From Cenococcum geophilum (lineage: Eukaryota), in the NCBI GenBank assembly GCA_050273025.1, contig CP158635.1:7006001-7070000 (forward strand): 64,000 bases of DNA, in the 5' to 3' direction. Of this stretch, positions 1 to 57,995 are shown in pieces. Position 1 is the stretch's first letter, and every line of letters begins with the position of its first letter. The position numbers were made by a program, and so were the translations under genes. A model generated the notes under the pieces. The model saw only the letters and a list, made by a program, of their open reading frames with translations. It did not search any database and was not told where the DNA came from.

Positions 1-759
1 GACGTATATACTTAGCGTTAGAGATAGATTAAACGTTATAGGACAACCGCATATTCGCTCGAGTATACTTAGCATAAAAAGAAGGTTAGCAACTAAATGG
101 AGCTGCGATTGTAATATATACTAACTTCTTCTCTATATAACAAGAATAGAACGGTATAACTTTACTAAGTAACAGAATAAACGTCACCAGCTAGTTATAA
201 TAATTAGACGCAGAAGATTTAATAAGAGGCATTAGAAATAATAAAGGTTATTAAATTAAAGACGGGAATGCTATACCTCTAATAAACGACTTAGAGATAG
301 GAGATATCTTTAAAGACAAAGATAAAGAGGAGGGGGATGGTGTTACGGACCTTATATTGGTAGTAGTGCGACTACTAAGGGCAGATATAAATGGGTTAGT
401 TAAGATAGTATAGGAGGAGCTAGAACTAATTAAGCTATAAAATAAAAGGTAGCTAAGTTATATAGCTAGTTATGTTATAAGTTTAGAACGTAGGAACGTA
501 GGAATATGGGAACGCGACGTACTAACGTACTAACGTACCGACGTACTGAACTCTTTATTATAGAGAGGAGTTATATATTTAAGGACACACGGTCTTTATA
601 GATAGTTTCTCTTCCTTATAGTAAATCTTAGAATATAATTAGAGTTAATCTGTTAGGCAACTACTCCACTAGTTATGTTTACGTTGTTAACTATTCTATA
701 CCTACATACCCAGCCCATTAACAAGTCCACCGTAGTATTTCCTACAAGGCTTCGTTATA
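1..759 (+). mobile_element. 3' end of RIP-degraded Ty3/Gypsy LTR retrotransposon (antisense ORF remnant, PPT, 3' LTR 341-759)
   Basis: Polypurine tract GAGGAGGGGGATGG directly precedes TGTTAC at 341. Segment 341-759 is the reverse complement of the LTR at 4413-4824 and is related to the LTRs at 49203 and 56729. Confidence 0.8.
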
Positions 760-2893: not shown

Positions 2894-4824
2894 ATTTCTT
2901 GTTCTATAGTGGAATTATTCTCTACCTTTATTACGTATTCAAGCTTTATATACTTTTAGTTAGTCGCCTATTTCTTCTTATAATTACTGCTAATAGTCTA
3001 ATTATCTTAATTTTTAGATTTTATTGCTTAGTAAAACTAGTATATAAGAACTTTCTCTGTTAACTACTAGCCGTATATACCGTCTTTATTCTAATCTAGT
3101 TTATAAAGTTAATCTTATTCTTTATCTAACTCTCTTATACCCTAAAGTCCTTTTAACTTTAGGCTCTTATAGCTAATAGCTTATACTATACTTAGCATTC
3201 TTATAAACTTAGAATGCGTTATTATAGTAAAACGCAAAACTATTAATTAAACACTCTTTTATTTCTCTATATATATATATTATTTACTAGTCTTATTTCC
3301 TTTACTATATAGTAACTCTAACCACTTCTATAGTCTCTAGCGAAATAACTTTATTTTCTATAGTTTATATAAGTTTCTTCTTTAAGCCATTTTTCTTATT
3401 ATAGAGTTTGCCTAAACGTCTTTTGCTATTAAGATTTCTAATTTAGCCTCTGCTTCTTAGTCCTATAATTACTTAATTTTTAATCTTTAGGTTTTTATAG
3501 TTTCTTATTTTATCTTTTAGATTCTTTAGTACCGCTTAGGTCTATTAGCTCTAGTCCGCTATTTTATAGTTTTTAACTCTAACTATATTGTTACGTGCCT
3601 TGCGCCTTATATAACTATAAAACTCTATTTTATTCTTTCTTAGTTTGTTTTCTTTAATAGATTCTATTATTAATTTTAATTACTTAATTTATAAGTTCCC
3701 TAAGTATATCCGTATCTTTTATTAGAATAATTACATTCTAGACTTTCGCTTTAAGTTCTTACTTATACTATACTATAAGCGCCTTATTATTTTACTTAAC
3801 CTATATAGCTAGTATTTAAAACTACGTTATATACTTAATTGCTAAGGTTTATTATACTATATTTTAAAGCTTTTATTTTACTATAATTATTGCTTTTAAG
3901 TCCCCAAATATTTATATAAGTTAGCTTGTGAATCCTTTCTAGCTTAAGAACATATACTTAACTTCTAGGTTAGTAGTTATGTTTCTATGCTTTTATATCT
4001 TAATAAGATAAGATTCGAAACACTTAAGTGCTCTTTTTATTAGAAATAATTCTGTATAGACTACTTAGTCTATTAATATAGCGAGCTTTGTACTCTCTTA
4101 TATTACCTTAAAGCGCATTTATACTAAAAATCCCTTAAGCTTTAACTTCTCTTCTAAGAATCGCTTAACCGATAGTAATTTAACCTTTACTACTCTGATT
4201 CTATTAATTCGTTCTTTAAGTATTTAATTATTATCTATTAATTAATTAACTATTTCTTGTAATTAACCTACTGTAATAAGCTGTAAGTTAGTATCCTATA
4301 TACTAGTATTCCCACTTATTCTTAATGTGGTTACTACTATTAATGGCGTTATAACTAGTGCTTTTAGTGACATATTACTTAACTTATTAATACTATAACT
4401 AGGTAGTAAATATATAATAAAGCCTTATAGGAAATACTACGGTAAACTTATTAATAGGCTAGGTATATAGGTAACTAATAAGTTAATAATAATAATATAA
4501 CTAGTAGAGTGGTTACTTAATAGATTAACTCTAATTATATTCTAAGATTTACTATAAAGAAGAGAACTATTTAAATAGGGACTGTGGTCCTTTAAATATA
4601 TAATACTGCGCCTAAGAAATATACTAAGCACGTTAGTGCATTAATACGTCAGTATGTTACGTTTCTACGTTTCTACGTTCCGAACTTGTAACGTAACTAG
4701 CCATATAACTTAGTTACCCCTTGTTTTATAGCTTAATCGGTTCTAGCGCCTTTTATACTATCTTAACTAACCTATTTATATCTCTTCTTAGTAGTCGTAC
4801 TACTGCTAATATAAGGTCCGTAAT
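2894..4824 (-). mobile_element. 5' part of RIP-degraded Gypsy element (5' LTR 4413-4824 + gag)
   Basis: Colinear homology with the gag at ~55500-56700. RIP-masked zinc knuckle TYINYRK*SYFARDY (C-x2-C-x4-H-x4-C) at ~3325-3375. LTR matches 341-759. Confidence 0.75.
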
Positions 4825-48782: not shown

Positions 48783-49202
48783 ACGTATTCCACTAGCGAA
48801 AGCCGCAAATCACCGAGTGTCGCACGTTAAACCCTACTAAAAATTGGGAATTTTATATCTTAATATTTTAACAACCACTTAATAATAAATTCTAATAATT
48901 TATATTTAGACTTTTATATATACTTTATAGCCTATATTAAAGTTATATAGTAATTAGTTAAGTAGTTTTTAAAATATTAAATTTTAGGGGCTAAAATAAG
49001 CCAAATTACTATATCTTAACAACTACTAAACTAATTACTATGCAACTTTAAGATAAGCTGTAAAGTATATATAAAAGTCTAAATATAATTTATTAGAATT
49101 TATTATTAAGTGGTTGTTAAAATATTAAGGTATAAAATTCCCAATTTTTAGTGGGGTTTGACGTGCGACACTCGGGGGTTTACGACTTTCGCTAGTAAAT
49201 AC
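48783..49202. mobile_element. Foldback MITE (~180-bp TIRs, TA|ACGT ends); right tip split by the Gypsy insertion
   Basis: 48783-~48965 is the reverse complement of ~49020-49202. The missing terminal GT|TA is found at 57159-57162, after the Gypsy TSD. Confidence 0.8.
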
Positions 49203-52200
49203 TGTAACGGAACCTTGTAGCAAGAACTACGGTGGGCTCGTTATTAGGCTAGGTGTGTAGGAAATGCAAGTACAAAAGTCAACAACGTAATAACAACTAG
49301 TGGAGTGGTTGCCTAATAGATTAACTCCAATTATATTCTAAGAATTACTATAAGGAAGGAACTATCTAGGTAGGGACTAAGGGTCCTTAAATACACAACC
49401 GTACTCCTAAGAAAGTTATTACTTTATTTGCTCTGTCTGCTCTGTTTACTCTATAATAGATCTTATAGATTATATAGATTATACAAATTATATTACATAA
49501 CTCTACTTACCATTCCTTATTATATGGTTCTACGGGTTCTATCTTAGACCGTACTTATATTAACTAACTAGCTTCTTCTAACTTCTCTCTAAGTAGTCGT
49601 AATATTATACTTAAAGCGTTTATAATACTATCTCCCTCCTTTCTATCTTTGTCCTTAAAGATACCTAGCATCTCTAGGTTATTTACTAGAGGTATAATAT
49701 CCGTCTAATTAATTTAGTTAATATTATTACTTATAATGCCTAAAGCACCTTCTTCTTCCTCTATAGCCCGTTGGTCTTATACCATTACTATAATATTATC
49801 TCTTAGTAAGATAATGCCATCTCCGTGTTCTTATTATATAAAAGAAGGGCTAGTTTACATTACGTTGGCGAGTCCTTTGTCCCGGTAACCTTCCTCTTAT
49901 TTAAAGTATACTAAAGCGAATATTCAGTTATCCTGTAACGTTCGCTCTATCTCTAATATTAAATATACGCGACCTATTACTCTTAATAGTCGTCTAGTTC
50001 CCTAATTAATTTGTTTTAGGGTCTTATGTTTAATCCGAGGCAGAAAGACTTAAGGGTAATCTTGCCGCAGCGCTGGCGGAAGCCTATTATTAATCCGAAG
50101 AATCTGCTCGTGCCCTTAAGGCTTAGCAGTCTGCCTTTATAAAAGTTTAGCGTCTTTAACGCGTTTATAAGAAGGTTTGCTTTAAGGAGTAGAAACTTAT
50201 AGAATAAGGTCTATAGGAACTAGGTAATAAAAGAACGGATTCTCTTCTAATAGAGAAGGAAATAGATCTAAGTAGTTCGGCAACTGCTCTTCTTAGGTCC
50301 CCCTTAGGTAACTTATTCTTTAGCGATCCTTCTTTATTAATACTACCTAACCTAATCTCCTCCGATACTCCTGTACCTTTTTTATAGCATTTTTTAAATT
50401 CTCTAGTAGCTCCTAGGTAGTCTTAGTATAGCCTATCCACTTAACCTTATACTATATCTCGTTATTAATATTCTTATAATTAATAATCTTTAATACTTGC
50501 CATTTATCTTCTTCTTGTCCTCTATATATGTCTGCTTTATAAACTAGTAGCTTAATATTTCTATATACTGGCTCTAGCATTACAATATACTATATAGGGT
50601 AGATCTTCATTTTAGCTGGTAGGTTTAACTTAAATGTAACTAGTGAAATCCTTTATATAATTTTAAAAGGTCTTAGTCTAACACAGTCCAATTTCTTACT
50701 TAGTCGTTAACTCTTAAAATTTTTATGTAGTAGCTATACTTTATCTCCCTCCTTAAGATCTGGTCCCTTAGATCTCTTAGTATTATAGTACTTTTTTATT
50801 CTCTCTTATACTTTCTTTACTAATTCCATAAGGTCTATATAAAGATTTATTAATATCTTTATTCTCTCTTTAGCTATACTACTTATTTTCTTTACTTGCT
50901 GTAGTAATAACAATATTCTTAGCTTATATCCGTAATTTACCTTAAATAGTAATATGCCTATTCCTTCTTAAGGTGTTATATTATACGCAAACTGTATAAC
51001 TAGTAACAGTAATACCCAATTATTCTATGCATAATTAACATAATGCCTTAGATACTATTCTAGCGTCTAATTTAATCTTTCTATTTAACCGTCTATCTAC
51101 GGATAATATGCGGTAGAAGTTGCTGCTTAAACTCCTTGCTCCGCTAAAAACACTTCCTAGAATGCTGCTACGAATCTTAGATCTCTATCTGATATAATTT
51201 TGCTTAGTGCTCCATGTCTTATAAACACTTCTTTAATATAGATTTTAGCGATATCTTCTACTAAGATTTCTTCCGTATATGCTATAAAGTATCCCCACTT
51301 TATAAGCTTGTTTACTATTACTAAGATTATATTATAATCTTATCCAGTAATAGGATCTTTTAATTTTAGTAACTTAATAATAAAGTCCCATAATATAACC
51401 TCCTATAGTCTCTCTAGTATTTTAATAGGTTATAGCCCTCTATATAGCTTATATCTTATCGGTTTGTTCCTTTAGTAATCTAGATATTCCTTTATAACCT
51501 TTCTAGCTATCCTCTAGATTCCGTTAATAATATACTCCTCCTAGAGTCTCGACACTAAGCCTATAGCTTTATTATATCCTTAAGTTAGTCCTTTATAGAA
51601 GTCCTCTATAAATTACTCTGCTATGCTTCTTAGGATATACTTTACTTCTTAATTTTCGTATATATCTATCTGTGGATCTTCTAGCTATACTTCTAGAATT
51701 CTTTATGCCTAAAAGCTTTCTAATATCTTATAAACTTTCTCTAATTCGTCGTCTTCTTAAGTTACTATAATTTTTGGATGATTATACCTAATTAATCCGT
51801 CTGTATCTTTTTGCAATAAAGCCCCTAATAGCTTTTCCTTATTTTATAGTTTAGCTTTACAGCTTAGAGCATCTACCCACGTATTATCTATACCTTTAGT
51901 ATACTAAATCTCAAAATAGTATTCCGTAAGCATCTCTACCCATCTAACCTGTCTTTGGTTAAGTTCCTTTATTATTAGGAATCCTATTAGGTTCTTATAA
52001 TCCGTCTTAACCATAAATAGTTTTTCTATGCCTTATAAGAATACTCTCTATTCCTTTAATGCTGCAACTATACCTAATAACTCCTTATTATAGATGTTAT
52101 AGTTTAACTCTAGTGGTATTATCTTCTAACTATAGTATGCCACTAGGTGCTATCTATCTTAATGCCTTTATATAAAGCACGCCCCTAGTATATAGTCTAA

Positions 52201-55200
52201 TATATCTATTTTTACAACTATCTCTAGTTTTAGTTAATAGATCTTAAGAACTAGCTCCTAGGTAAATAACTCTTTAACTTTCCTAAAGAGTTCTCTTTAC
52301 TCTTCCCCCTATGCCTATAGTTCTTCTTTCTTTATTAACCGCGTAAATAGCTTAATGTCCTTTAACCATTACGCTATAAACCTTTTATAGTAATTGTAAA
52401 ACCCTAGGAACAATCTTAACTATATAACGTTCTCTAGTTCCTACTAATTTACTATAGCCTTAATCTTCTTTAAATCTATACTAAGTTAGCCTAGTTTAAT
52501 AATAAATTTAATAAAATCGGTCTTCCTGGTAAAGAACTTATATTTCTTAATTACTACTAGTATCTATTCTTCTTGTAGTCTCTTTAAGACCCATTTAATA
52601 TATTCCCCGTATTCTTCCTTAGTTATTAAGTAGATAATAATATTATTAAAATATACTATAACAAATTTATCTAAGTATTCTCCTAATATATTATTAATAC
52701 GCTTTTAGAACGTTACTAGTGCGTTTATAAGCCCGAATTGCATAACCAATAGTTTATATAGTCCTTTCTTTAACCTAAAGGCTGCCTTCTATTTATCGCC
52801 TTCCTTAATCCTAATTTAATGGTACGCCTATCTTAGATCTATCTTTATAAAGATTTGCGCATTGCCTATCCTATCTTAGATTTTGCTAATTAAGGGTAAA
52901 GGATACCTATCCTTCCTGGTAATGCTATTTAACTATCTATAGTTAATACACAGCCTTAGTTTACTATTCTTCTTTAGTATAAACAGTACTAGATAACCTG
53001 CTAATAACTGCGATGGTCTAATATATCCCTTTTATAGATTTTCCTAGATAAACTCTTTTAACGCTCTACCTTCTTCTTCAGTAAGCTTGTAGATTGGAAA
53101 GAACTTTAGACTTATTCCTAGTTCTAACTCTATTTTATAGTTCTATGCTATATATTCTAATAGCTTCTTACTTTCCGGTAACTATAGTTTCTTACCGTAC
53201 TTATAGTATCTCTTTAGTATATAGCTTAGTCCTTTTTCTGTTTCTTTATAGGTTGCTCCTACTTAGTACTATACTAACTTAGCTTATTATTATATCTTGC
53301 GGCATTAAGTATCTCTAATATCGACCTAACCTGTAATCTAATTAATCCTCGGATTATATTCCTATAACTAAGGCATACCTAATACTGCCTCGTCCCGTCC
53401 TAATAGTAGGATATTAAAAGACATCTTAATTTATCTTTCTTTAATAGTTATCTAAATAGGTCCTATTTTAAGACTAATAATCCCTCCTCTATAGGTTATT
53501 AGATCTCCTAAAATTATAACTAATAGGTAAGGTTACTTCTTTTATCTATAAGGTAGCCCCATTCTCTTAACTACTGCTAGTAAGATATAGTTTTACGTTA
53601 CTCTACTATCTATTAGCGCTTTAAACTACTAATCTTACTAATTAATCTGTAAATTTAGGTATTATCCTTAAATTCCTTTAAAGGTCTAAGGCTTTACCAC
53701 TAGCTCCCTCTAGTCCTATAGGCCTCTACTTTTTCTAACTATTAGCTACTTAATCCTAGTATACTTAGCTCGCTTTTTAGCTAATACCTAGTTCGCTTTT
53801 TATCTTTAATATACTATAGATATATATTTTCTAGGCATTCCTACTACTGTCGTCCGTCTAAGTATTTTTCTATAAGGAATCTTCCTAGTTAAAGTACTAA
53901 ACTTCCTTCCTCTTAGATTTCTATTGGATGCTATCCGTGTATATATTTAGCATTCCTATACTATTACTTATCCGTCATCTAGTACATCCTTATAGGGTAT
54001 TTCTAATTCTTTTCTTTTGGATTCTTATATATTTTATATATATCGTCTATGTACGCGATCTATAATAACGTGTGGTATACTAGGTACTTTAGGTTAACTC
54101 TTAGCTTATCTTTATCCTTAAGTTTAAACCTTTATTATACTAATCTAAACGTTACAACTTTATTTATAGGTACTAAGATGCGCCTCTTACTTCTCTAGTC
54201 CTCTAAATATTCCTTTAGATCCTTTAATGTTATAATTAAGGCTCCTTTAATATACGTTATAGCCTTCTCTATAATTAGGTGGTCCTAGATAACTTTTTTA
54301 TCCAACTATATATAGAAATCTTCCTACTTATTATTATGCCTTTGCCTATACTACTTTTGGTACAGCTGCTAGAGTATATATAGTCTATCTATAAGGAAGT
54401 ATCTTCTTATTGCTATATTGTGACAGCCTTTTATATATCGTTCCTCGAACCTAGTTAAAATCCCTAAATCCTCTTTATCTTCTAGTTTAGTAAGCCACTT
54501 AGCTCTTAGTATGCCTGCTCTTAGCCTATTAGTGATTCTTTATACTAGTGCTCTGTCCTTTATACGTCCTAATGTGCTAGATCTCTTATCTAGTTTCTAT
54601 TCTTACTATATGATAATTCTTTACCTAAACTCTTTTATAATTTCTTTTAGTTTACGCCTTATGCTCTAATCCTTAAAGTTATCTTACTTCTTAATCCTAG
54701 TATTAACTTTTTAATCTTTAGTCTAAACACTTTATTTAACTAGTAAATCCTCTAGGTCTATATATTCGTCTCTTAGTCTAATTACTATTTATGCCGCAGA
54801 TTCTCTAATCTATAAAGAAGCCTCTGGCCTCTTATCTGTGGGTGTCCTAATTTATACCCTAAATTCTTAACCCCTTAGGTTCTTTAATCCCAAGCTTGCT
54901 TCTGACTTAAGCTTAGCTTTAGCCTTAGTCCAACTAGGCTTACTTAGTGTCCTTATCTTGTCTTAAGAGTCCTAGATCTTACTTATCTTATCTTAAGAAT
55001 TTTATGCTATTAGGAATTCTTATCCCGAGCTTATTTATATGTCTTTAAACTAAGCCGCTACTTTACTCTATCGGTTTCTGTTCGTTGTGGGTTCTTAAGC
55101 TTACCTTATCTTATCTTAAGAATCTTAGTTATCTCTTATCTTATCTTAAGAATCTTAAGCCTTTGGCCTTTTGCCTTTATTAAGTGCCGAAGTAGTTTAC

Positions 55201-57153
55201 TATCCTACTTCTCTTACATCTCGTAAAGCAATAGACATTATATCTAGTGGGGTTTCGATCCCTACTAATATTCCTTATTCTATACTAGAATTATCCTCTA
55301 CCTCTGGTATAATATCTCTAAGGTCTACTCGCTTTTAGTAAGCGGCCCTTATTGCCTTATTATTACGGAATGTTTCGCCTAGGTTAAATTTATCGTCCTT
55401 AATATCTAATCTGCGAACTAGTTCGTTAGTTCCTTTGCATTTTATAGGTACTAGCTCTTATAGCTAATAGCTTACGCCATACTTAGCGTCCTTATAAATT
55501 CGGCATACGTTATTATAATAAAATGTAAAACTTCTAATTAAACATTCTTTTGTTCCTCGCAGTATATTATTATCCCTTTATACGTATATATCGTCTACTA
55601 GTCTTATGCCTTTTACTATATAGTGACTCTACCTACTTCTATAGTCTCTAATATAATAACCCTATTTTCTGTAATTTATGTAAGCTCCTTCTTTAAACCA
55701 TTTTTCTTACTATAGAGTCCGCCTAAATGTCTTCTACTATTAAGATCCCTAATTTGGCCTCTACTCCTTAGACCTTTAATTACTTAATCCTTATCCTTTA
55801 AGTTTTTATAGTTTGCTCCCTCTTTTATAGGCTTCTTTAGTACCACTTAGGTCTATTAGCTCTGCGCCATACCATAGTTTCTAACTTAGCTTTTGTTATT
55901 ACGTACTTTGCGCCTTATATAACTATAGAACTCTATCCTAGCCTCTTTTAGCCTGTTCCCTCTAGTAGATTTAATTATTAATCTTAATTACCTAATCTAT
56001 TAGTTCCTTTAGGGTATCCGCATCTTCTATTAGGATAATTACATCCTAGACTTTAGCCTTAAGTCCCTATTTATACTATGCCATAAGCGCCCTATTATTC
56101 CACTCTACTTATATTACTAGTGTCTAGAACTATATTATATACTTAATTATTAAAGTTTATTACACAAGGTTCTGGAGTTTTTTTTCTGCTATAGTTATTT
56201 CTTCTAGGTTTCTAAATATCTGCGTTAGTTGTTCTGCGAATCCTTTCTAACTTAAGAATATAAATTGCACGTCTTAGTTAGTGGTCGTTATTCCGTTTAC
56301 CTATATCTCTATAAGGTAAGGTTTAAACCACTTAAGTGCTTTTCCTAATAAGAATAGTCCTATATAGGCTATCTGATCCACAGGCGTAGGTAACTTTGCT
56401 CCCTCTTATAAGACCTTAAAATGCATCTATATAAGGAATCTTTTAAGCTTTAACCTCTTTCCTGTAAATCTCTTAATTAATAGTAGCTTAATCTTTACTG
56501 CTCCTATCCTATTAAGTCTTTCTTCCAATACTATATTATTAGCTATTAGCTAGTTAACTATTTCCTATAGCTGTCTAACCGTCACAGGTTGCTGTAAGTC
56601 AGTATCTGCTATACTGGTGTTACCTCCTGTCCTTAAAGTAGTTGCTGCCGTTAATGGCGTTGTGGTGGCTGCTTTTAGTAGCATATTATTCGACTTCTTA
56701 TATTAATACCGTAACTAGGTAGTGATTATATAACGGAACCTTATAGTAAGAACTACGGTGGGCTTGTTATTGGGCTAGGTGTATAGGAAATGTAAGTATA
56801 AAAGTTAACAACGTAATAACAACTGGTGGAGTGGTTACCTAACAGATTAACTTTAATTGTATTCTAAGAATTACTATAAGAAAGGAACTATTTAGGTAGG
56901 GACTAAGGGTCCTTAAATACATAACCGTACTCCTAAGAAAGTTATTACTCTGTCTGCTCTGTCTGCTCTATTTGCTCTGCGATAGATCTTATAGATTATA
57001 CAGATTATACAGATCACATCACGTAACTCTGCTTACTATTCCTTGTTATATGGTTCCATGGGTTTTATCCTGGACCGTGCTTATATTAACCAACTAGCTT
57101 CTTCTAACTCCTCTCTAAGTAGTTATAACATTGTACTTAAAGCGTTTGTAACA
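49203..57153 (-). mobile_element. Full-length RIP-inactivated Ty3/Gypsy chromovirus
   Basis: 425-bp LTRs at 49203-49627 and 56729-57153 (outer ends TG..CA). TSD AATAC/AATAT. RT motif FVIVYFNNIIIY (YxDD after RIP), integrase, and chromodomain YKVKWIGYTKTT*ELLENLKNA. Confidence 0.93.
49736..50430 (+). pseudogene. Antisense extra ORF of the Gypsy element: Zn(II)2Cys6-like motif, probable intron and coiled coil (RIP-damaged)
   Basis: MPKAPSS..PCSYYIKEGLVYITLASPLSR*PSSYLKYTKANIQLSC, with TAT/TAC at the Cys positions. Acceptor TTTTAG at ~50019 is followed by a helical EAERLKGNLAAALAEA segment. The end is approximate. Confidence 0.6.
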
Positions 57154-57162
57154 AATATGTTA

Positions 57163-57995
57163 TATATAATCTAAAAATAAATCTAAAAAAAGCTAAAAGA
57201 AATGTTAAGGAGTATTATTAAAAAGGTAGTTAAATAATTAAAAAAAATTAGTAAAATATAAACTACTTAAAGAGGATATAGAACGAATATCTACGAAGGT
57301 ATAGAGAGTTATTTTCTTCTCTACTTTAATAGAATTCATTCTTTTATTACTTAGTTGCTAAAGACCTTATTAAACTAAATGGTACTTCTTTAAACGAACC
57401 TTCTTGTAGACTTTTTTAAAACGCTGAAGATAAGTATAGGTAAAGGAACGTGCTTTAAAGGCCTAGTACTCTTCTTTATAGATATAATGTTTAACCTTCT
57501 AGAGGCGGTAGATCTTAATAAGGATAGCTAAAAGTTTACCGTTAAGCTTTGTAGTAGTAAATTAAACCTAAAACCTTAGAATAAATTAGATAAGAAACTA
57601 GAAGACTTTAAAGAATAATATAACGCGCATATTTTATATTAAAAGTGGGAACGAATATTATAGAACGATTAAATATTTACTTTAATATACTCTAAATAAG
57701 AGGAAGATTTACGACTAAACGGAGCTATAATTATAATATAGACTAATCTTTCTTTTAAATAGTACGAATATGGAGATATAAATTTTACTAAGTAATAATA
57801 TTATAGTAAATAGTACGTATATAACGTTGCGCTTATATAAAGGGAGGTTACTTATGTATAATGAGTAATAAAGAAAACTAAATTAAATTAGAGAATACTA
57901 TACCTCTAATTAATAATTTAAAGATATAGAATATCTCTAAGGATAAAGTTAGAGAGGAGGGGGATAGTATTATAGACTTTATATTAGTAACGTTA
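57163..57995 (+). mobile_element. Host Gypsy relic, right part (chromodomain end, antisense ORF, PPT, truncated LTR start)
   Basis: GAGAGGAGGGGGATAG followed by TATTATAGACTTTATATT matches the PPT/LTR start at 325-358. An antisense Cys-motif copy lies at ~57650-57780. Confidence 0.7.

Follow-up and report, generated by a model that had tools for sequence, protein, structure and literature searches.

A probable antisense accessory gene with a six-cysteine module and a long predicted helix in a Ty3/gypsy element of Cenococcum geophilum

Antisense genes of LTR elements and the Cenococcum locus

Among the long terminal repeat (LTR) retrotransposons of fungi, an antisense gene named brtn was reportedly described by Zhao et al. 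in 2011 (Virology 417:248). According to passages in later papers, the Boty-like gypsy elements of Botrytis and Sclerotinia carry it in the interval from pol to the 3′ LTR (PMC8365987, PMC7264820, PMC4227169, PMC5987419). In plants, the same interval carries antisense genes in Grande1, RIRE2, Retand (where the product has a TRP28 domain) and PvRetro13, which the relevant passages describe as kept across the copies of a family and suspected of a DNA-binding regulatory role (PMC7264820; PMC11963269). Antisense genes are also mentioned for the human and simian T-lymphotropic viruses, HTLV and STLV (PMC11963269). Here, we analyzed a stretch of 64,000 nucleotides from the fungus Cenococcum geophilum (assembly GCA_050273025.1, contig CP158635.1, positions 7,006,001 to 7,070,000 of the forward strand; hereafter the window, whose own numbering is used throughout), in which a Ty3/gypsy element on the minus strand has been degraded by repeat-induced point mutation (RIP). 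With fair confidence, we read positions 49736-50387 of the plus strand as the RIP-killed copy of a genuine antisense accessory gene that belongs to this chromovirus family.

The element lies in an AT-rich block (~46-58 kb; GC 0.26-0.46 per kb versus ~0.44-0.55 over most of the remaining window) and is bounded by two direct repeats of 421 nt with 88.8% identity, which enclose 7.9 kb. Pfam searches with the minus-strand pol frame, read through its stops, returned RVT_1 (2e-17), RT_RNaseH (2.2e-20), RT_RNaseH_2 and SH3_Tf2-1 (1.3e-6) in gypsy order, in one frame and flanked by the LTRs. These matches on the minus strand, together with the LTR pair, identify a RIP-degraded Ty3/gypsy element in that orientation. 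The end of pol carries a motif, recognized by eye, that we take to be chromodomain-like; the RIP-mutated pol translation gave no Pfam match to the Chromo domain at E ≤ 0.01. No target-site duplication was recognizable at the element ends (49200-49204 and 57152-57156). The features of the element are as follows:

49205-49625, minus strand: 3′ LTR, 421 nt, paired with 56731-57151
49632-49654, minus strand: polypurine tract, seen as a pyrimidine run on the plus strand and read directly, with the LTR edge 6 nt away
49736-49970, plus strand: coding part 1 of the antisense gene, comprising the basic N-terminus and the six-Cys module, with one RIP stop, the TAA of codon 51
49971-50019, plus strand: putative 49-nt intron, GT...AG in most copies, with GA as the donor in the window copy
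50020-50387, plus strand: coding part 2 of the antisense gene (long predicted helix and Pro/Ser-rich tail), in frame +1, with 8 premature RIP stops
50401-56700, minus strand: RIP-degraded gag-pol with reverse transcriptase (RT), RNase H and integrase SH3 matches from Pfam, and a presumed chromodomain-like end at ~50413-50580
56731-57151, minus strand: 5′ LTR, the partner of the pair, 88.8% identity

The antisense gene starts ~110 nt inside the 3′ LTR boundary, beside the polypurine tract, and is arranged tail to tail with pol. Mapping of the LTRs, the tract and the Pfam matches agrees with the first-pass annotation of this DNA, which had placed a frame between the chromodomain-like pol end and the polypurine tract on the strand opposite gag-pol. 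In other families, the stretch of the polypurine tract is kept as an N-terminal read-through of their open reading frames (ORFs).

To compare copies, relatives were located at 590 confirmed places in metagenome contigs. The 80 loci retained provided 74 full-length copies of the region 49600-50480 for alignment, all of them RIP-mutated, with a GC content of 29-38%. The gene is an antisense additional ORF between pol and the 3′ LTR by its position, its strand and its conservation: most copies carry it (74 full-length matches in the 80 loci), and the conservation is of the coding type. The setting corresponds to that of brtn, with which it can be compared by description only: both are extra genes antisense to gag-pol in the pol-3′ LTR interval of a fungal gypsy element, with a chromodomain in Boty and a presumed one here. 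The passages on brtn mention no cysteines, coiled coil or intron, and the host here is a different fungus in which all copies are RIP-mutated. A further counterpart is HBZ of HTLV-1, an antisense gene that starts from the 3′ LTR end, has a spliced form, contains a dimerization helix of the coiled-coil type and regulates its virus's own transcription. HBZ shares with our gene the antisense orientation, the start at the 3′ LTR end, the spliced form and the helix, with splicing and dimerization putative for the window gene; it is a bZIP protein of a human retrovirus without a cysteine module and has no sequence relationship to it. The plant antisense ORFs agree in position and orientation. Their proteins belong to other families (TRP28, PF04195), for which the passages report no six-Cys module, and Retand represents a non-chromovirus lineage whose POL-3′LTR regions are ~2.9-6.6 kb long (PMC11963269). 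The suggestion that the layout falls outside the known variants of gag-pol elements is therefore not upheld, as antisense genes in this interval have already been published, as far as these passages go, for Boty and several plant elements.

Cysteine codons and coding constraint in the copies

The plus-strand frame that opens with the ATG at 49736 runs for 50 codons until a TAA; when read through, its translation (P0001) reaches 50002. Direct reading confirmed the reported series of codons, with TGT at codons 31 and 67 and TAT or TAC at codons 34, 41, 55 and 58, hence a spacing of x2-x6-x13-x2-x8. Translating 18 kb of AT-rich DNA in all six frames gave four occurrences of a loose [CY] pattern with this spacing, compared with a mean of 0.37 in first-order Markov simulations. 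Three of the occurrences are homologous gene copies (at 49826, 57770 and 148) and one is a chance match in an LTR. Since the bare pattern is not rare, support for the module rests on the comparison of copies instead. The window copy itself is dead, with one stop in part 1, eight in part 2, four of its six Cys codons changed to Tyr and a GA donor.

The earlier proposal that the Tyr codons are RIP products of Cys codons (TGY > TAY) was borne out, as the aligned copies read TGY or TAY at all six positions: taken in order, the positions keep TGY in 23, 31, 6, 6, 50 and 22 of the 74, and all other copies have TAY. At the protein level, a profile of the three window copies was used in a word-seeded search, which yielded 413 ORFs at E ≤ 10 among 457 candidates. 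The 120 listed ORFs, all short unnamed ORFs of metagenome contigs, show Y67/C53, Y79/C40, Y117/C3, Y106/C14, C66/Y54 and C75/Y44 in the six columns, with a single F at position 34 as the only residue other than C or Y. Their Arg columns hold mixtures of R, C, H and Y, as C>T and G>A changes make from CGY. The same four-way mixture at codon 33 of the DNA copies (CGY 26, TGY 32, TAY 14, CAT 2) indicates that Tyr33 was Arg and that the first pair read C-S-R-C, and the TAA of codon 51 in the window is Gln in all 120 listed ORFs. An exhaustive HMMER search extended the family to 264 cluster representatives (50% identity) at E ≤ 1e-3, 172 of them at E ≤ 1e-10. When 269 natural ORFs are compared, at least 88% of the rows have C or Y in each of the six columns, or at least 97% when gaps are excluded. 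In P0165 and P0191 all six Cys survive, with the spacing 2-6-13-2-8. As a control, 43 of the 49 TAY codons in the RT-RNase H-integrase region of the window carry G at the middle base in no more than one of 47-57 copies, and the remaining six, which include the CxxC pair of the integrase zinc finger, show G in at least 13 copies; the TGY/TAY mixture thus marks real Cys rather than noise. An independent DNA sequencing run showed A>G at 49908 in about half of its depth, and a less mutated contig of another run has TGT at codons 33, 34 and 41. Taken together, the six Tyr/Cys codons originally encoded Cys.

A possible seventh Cys lies at codon 77 (49964-49966), ten residues past the sixth. It is TGT in 3 of the 74 DNA copies and C in 14 of 119 ORFs, and is also present in P0174, a 110-residue ORF described below.

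Because RIP makes only transitions, transversions were chosen to measure coding constraint, and columns were counted where purine and pyrimidine alleles each occur in at least 3 of the 74 copies. By codon position 1/2/3, transversions numbered 7/3/23 in part 1 (frame 0) and 18/14/44 in part 2 (frame +1), or 25/17/67 for both parts pooled (p = 2.4e-9), while the segment between the parts gave 5/4/3 and lacked codon periodicity. All three indels of part 1 are multiples of three, as are nine of the ten indels of part 2 that occur in at least two copies; single-copy indels are mixed. The start is ATG or its RIP product ATA in 73 of the 74 copies. The same number keep the TAG at 50385-50387, so that the end first assigned to the frame, 50430, lies too far downstream. 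Both coding parts were therefore under protein-level constraint during the diversification of the family. The comparison of copies also refutes a chance origin, in which the Tyr-rich translation of RIP-mutated DNA would merely mimic a cysteine motif. The simulated expectation of the loose pattern and its one unrelated match in an LTR speak for such an origin, but the presence of Cys in other copies, the conservation of the columns over hundreds of ORFs and the signatures of coding constraint leave it a negligible probability.

Frame change, splicing and the zinc-cluster question

In the window copy and in all 74 relatives, the helix part is out of frame with the Cys part, in line with the annotated helix frame downstream of the Cys part. 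The second frame (P0002), shifted by +1, extends from ~50019 to the TAG at 50385 with 8 premature TAA or TAG stops, and its counterpart in P0174 is modeled as a helix. The same +1 relation was found in three further fragments of the same or sister families (L019, L046 and the second copy in the window). In a fragment of another family, L021, both parts share one frame, and this fragment is 1 nt shorter exactly in the segment between the parts, which fits what an intron would allow. The pol matches near L019, L021 and L046 belong to neighboring copies. Further evidence comes from P0174, an ORF of a 2113-nt JGI contig in which only one Cys is changed to Tyr and the helix follows the Cys module with no segment between them. 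Residues 1-51 match one frame and residues 52-110 match frame +1, and the alignment passes over exactly 52 nt (49970-50021 of the window) in all nine loci examined as well as in window coordinates. Inside the skipped stretch lies a 49-nt GT...AG segment (49971-50019), whose length would restore the reading frame in families with the shift and is consistent with the single frame of L021. Among the 74 copies, the donor dinucleotide is GT in 51, AT in 11, GA in 7 and AA in 5, and the acceptor AG is present in 71. These alignments make it moderately likely that the antisense gene is spliced, and the intron itself is likely rather than proven, given its non-consensus donor. The intron-like segment of the first-pass annotation is thereby retained in part: a short segment between the parts was probably removed, as P0174 indicates, while the donor departs from consensus and none of the six partial RNA reads spans the junction.

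Other ways of joining the two parts were tried and rejected. A donor GTATGC at 49963 with the acceptor at 50019 gives a length of 57 nt that keeps frame 0 and meets a stop, and P0174 retains the residues concerned. With a donor at 49989 the intron would be 31 nt, which is too short, and its positions +3 to +6 vary between subfamilies. For a donor at 49997 with an acceptor at 50049, the AG is missing in two haplotype groups, and a second intron from 50056 would remove a stretch whose frame +1 protein sequence is kept in different families. A programmed +1 frameshift at CCC-TAA meets the TAA at 50007 in 73-74 of the 74 copies (the middle base is A in 73). Some natural ORFs depart from the common arrangement: P0263 joins the first half of the Cys module straight to the helix through an in-frame internal deletion, and P0245, P0151 and P0103 read through the putative intron into the helix frame.

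Several observations weigh against a spliced gene on the plus strand, and they bear on two alternative accounts of the locus. In one, the minus strand is the coding strand, as an extension of pol or another sense ORF, and the plus-strand ORF with its cysteines is a shadow. In the inferred pre-RIP sequence, the minus frame with the same third positions is open opposite part 1 (0 stops) and has 2 stops opposite part 2; the shared third positions mean that periodicity alone fits this account equally and cannot name the strand. Synonymy of the third-position transversions in part 2 (33 of 44 on the plus reading, 29 of 44 on the minus) hardly separates the strands either, and no intact copy was found among the 74, as part 1 is stop-free in only 16 of them and part 2 in none (minimum 4 stops). 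In part 1, however, 22 of the 23 third-position transversions are synonymous on the plus reading versus 15 on the minus, and the least variable codon position overall is plus position 2 (17, versus 25 at position 1). The minus frame also lacks a Met, and six stops from 50184 to 49993 in the inferred pre-RIP sequence keep it apart from pol. It needs a frame change of its own and would turn the six conserved Cys into six His/Gln with no known meaning. The plus frame, by contrast, has the kept ATG/ATA and TAG, the six-Cys motif and a long helix predicted with confidence, the predicted local distance difference test (pLDDT) of the model exceeding 90. The plus strand is accordingly favored on these grounds, and coding by the minus strand is highly improbable.

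The other account accepts a real antisense gene and holds that it is unspliced, with the change of frame being a 1-nt insertion passed on by a broken master copy, or with a short product of ~86-106 residues; the read-through form of another family would then be the working long form. In P0245 the Cys module, the segment and the helix indeed form a single frame, a 1-nt difference accounts for the merged frames of P0151 and P0103, and P0031, P0043 and P0060 run for 105-106 aa in frame 0. The donor is also non-consensus, and in 12 of the 74 copies it is missing for reasons other than RIP, since RIP can explain the 11 AT donors but not GA (7) or AA (5), and GA is the donor of the window's own subfamily. 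Fungal donors usually carry G at +5, which the donor hexamer GTCCTA does not. A canonical 49-nt splice would moreover predict one codon (CGG) that is absent from P0174, and transversions at 49972 and 49978, within the first 8 nt of the putative intron, act as frame-0 third positions. No splice junction appeared in RNA, where the stretch is covered by only six raw reads, all partial, with the first mate of every pair on the minus strand in a library of uncertain strandedness. A 'brtn-106' variant of the Boty gene is named in a passage of PMC4227169, where 106 residues is a guess at the meaning of the number. Against an unspliced gene stand the codon periodicity and the shared in-frame indels of part 2, which show, within the frame-shifted family itself, that part 2 was translated in frame +1. 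P0174 likewise joins both parts without the segment, and L019, L046 and the second window copy share the +1 relation. We thus consider an unspliced gene unlikely and retain splicing as the preferred reading.

Searches for the identity of the protein returned little beyond the family itself. Pfam scans of the raw translations, including P0001, found nothing relevant. For Zn_clus (PF00172), 2 of 40 partly mutated members gave matches (best E 0.052), and P0174 scored 9.4 bits (E 1.5) against a cut-off of 21. The two ORFs with six Cys, P0165 and P0191, had no Pfam match at E ≤ 10; of seven other ORFs scanned with them, five had no match at this threshold and two matched unrelated families only. 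A PDB sequence search with P0174 gave 0 matches, ESM Atlas with residues 76-160 of P0165 gave a best score of 0.79, which is under the lead level, and a word-seeded search for longer relatives of P0001 found none. Looking up the protein clusters yielded no named member. No cellular homolog was present in the best 150 of the 264 HMMER representatives, all of them short unnamed ORFs, and no genuine Zn2Cys6 pattern occurs elsewhere in the 64-kb window. The alignment of part 2 retrieved a single weak match (E 1.2e-3), as RIP stops keep part 2 from ORF calling. AlphaFold2 with family alignments modeled the Cys module at low confidence (pLDDT 45-68 in P0174 and 44-56 in P0191) and residues 47-109 of P0174 as the long, confidently predicted helix mentioned above.

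The first-pass annotation had compared the product with the Gal4-type binuclear cluster, and a third account takes this literally, as a true Zn(II)2Cys6 cluster with a dimerization coil that was captured from a host transcription factor and acts as a DNA-binding regulator. Gal4-type factors (PF00172) resemble our gene in having six Cys in a 2-6-n-2-8 arrangement, followed by a linker and a long helix. Their PROSITE spacing is C-x2-C-x6-C-x(5-12)-C-x2-C-x(6-8)-C, so that the 2-6-13-2-8 of the window, P0165 and P0191 falls outside it by one residue of the middle loop. In the sister family, the residues past the second Cys are basic (K-E-K-K), and the order of module, linker, long helix and Pro/Ser tail with an acidic-hydrophobic end is like that of Gal4; the weak Zn_clus matches point the same way. 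Yet the window's family has a single Lys between Cys2 and Cys3 and few basic residues, and the product would comprise ~200 residues, lack the middle domain of fungal transcription factors and be borne by a transposon. Neither the PDB search, the search for cellular homologs nor the low-confidence models of the module lend support to such a capture. The absence of a Pfam match above the cut-off, the 13-residue loop and the low-confidence fold argue against placing the module in the Gal4-type Zn2Cys6 family, which renders a captured Gal4-type factor quite unlikely. Judged by its sequence, the module resembles the Gal4-type cluster in spacing and in the predicted helix that follows, but falls short of the Pfam cut-off and lies outside the PROSITE spacing. 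Of the proposed cluster-plus-dimerization layout, the likeness in spacing and the long predicted helix after the module therefore hold, and family membership does not.

Genomic setting, proposed product and significance

Two further copies of the antisense gene lie in the window:

57208-57848, minus strand: second copy, both parts, more degraded, adjoining the 5′ LTR in inverted orientation
2-235, minus strand: third copy, part 1 only, of a related family, cut by the window start

The second belongs to a copy of the whole region from the polypurine tract to the helix (57208-57977, minus strand), which lies inverted against the main element's 5′ LTR and is followed by DNA of normal GC from ~58000. 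This arrangement suggests insertion of the main element into another copy, or recombination between the two. At the window start, an AT-rich block holds sister-family sequence made up of an LTR and part 1 of the antisense gene (7-762, with 67% identity to 49200-49967), and a gag/LTR stretch in the same block (3163-4619) has 74% identity to 55454-56940. Directly outside the 3′ LTR lies an inverted repeat of 186 nt with 91% identity (48792-48977 and 49011-49196), and the gag/linker region contains a direct repeat of 57 nt (84%; 54951-55007 and 55104-55160), 153 nt apart. In the inferred pre-RIP sequence, the pol frame is open beyond the chromodomain-like end until a TAG at 50184-50182 on the minus strand (region 50182-50413), and its sole interruption, the TAG at 50415-50413, was read as a RIP-changed Trp codon. 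If this reading is right, pol and the antisense gene, which face each other tail to tail, may share ~200 nt at their 3′ ends. The RIP-mutated stretch (35-74% of sampled words) is present in sequencing runs under four organism labels and in a root metagenome, which indicates that the insertion is common to several sequenced strains or close species.

Based on these findings, we propose that an antisense transcript would start in or beside the 3′ LTR and that the 49-nt intron (49971-50019) would be spliced from it. As the intron is antisense, it would not be removed from the genomic RNA and would be copied into each new insertion. The predicted protein is small and begins with a basic stretch, followed by a six-Cys module that putatively binds zinc. 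Beyond the module come a helix of ~60 residues, which would probably associate as a coiled coil, and a tail rich in Pro and Ser whose end is acidic-hydrophobic. Such a protein would most likely be nuclear, binding nucleic acid or chromatin and tuning the element's own expression or silencing, a role that would resemble that of a miniature Gal4 or of HTLV-1 HBZ without membership in either family. From the architecture we infer a nuclear factor of small size that binds zinc, pairs through its helix and is made by the element for its own use; DNA binding, regulation, targeting and anti-silencing by this product are conjectures that go beyond that architecture. The interpretation given by the first-pass annotation thus stands in outline, with a real antisense extra gene, original Cys codons, a helix and a probable removal of the intervening segment, and without the Gal4 identity.

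Antisense extra genes of LTR retrotransposons are known but almost uncharacterized, and for the fungal case we found only citations of one 2011 paper. In the open-access literature and bioRxiv, no paper was found on an antisense gene with a cysteine cluster or an intron in a fungal retrotransposon. The present analysis adds a large family (264 representatives after clustering at 50% identity; 590 places in metagenome contigs), protein-level selection in both parts of an antisense gene, and a definable architecture of six Cys, a long predicted helix and a probable intron that, being antisense, escapes removal during reverse transcription. It also provides a rule for reading RIP-mutated genes, in which a TGY/TAY mixture stands for Cys, a CGY/TGY/CAY/TAY mixture stands for Arg, and transversions alone test coding constraint. 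A far-reaching and as yet doubtful extension is that many fungal chromovirus families keep under selection a miniature Gal4-like factor of their own, with a zinc cluster, a dimerizing coil and an activation-like tail. Made from an antisense intron-bearing transcript with its start at the 3′ LTR, this factor would bind the element's own LTR or host chromatin, control transcription, targeting or silencing of the element, and be the fungal counterpart of HTLV-1 HBZ. At the least, the architecture makes a zinc-binding, dimeric regulator encoded by the element itself a testable hypothesis.

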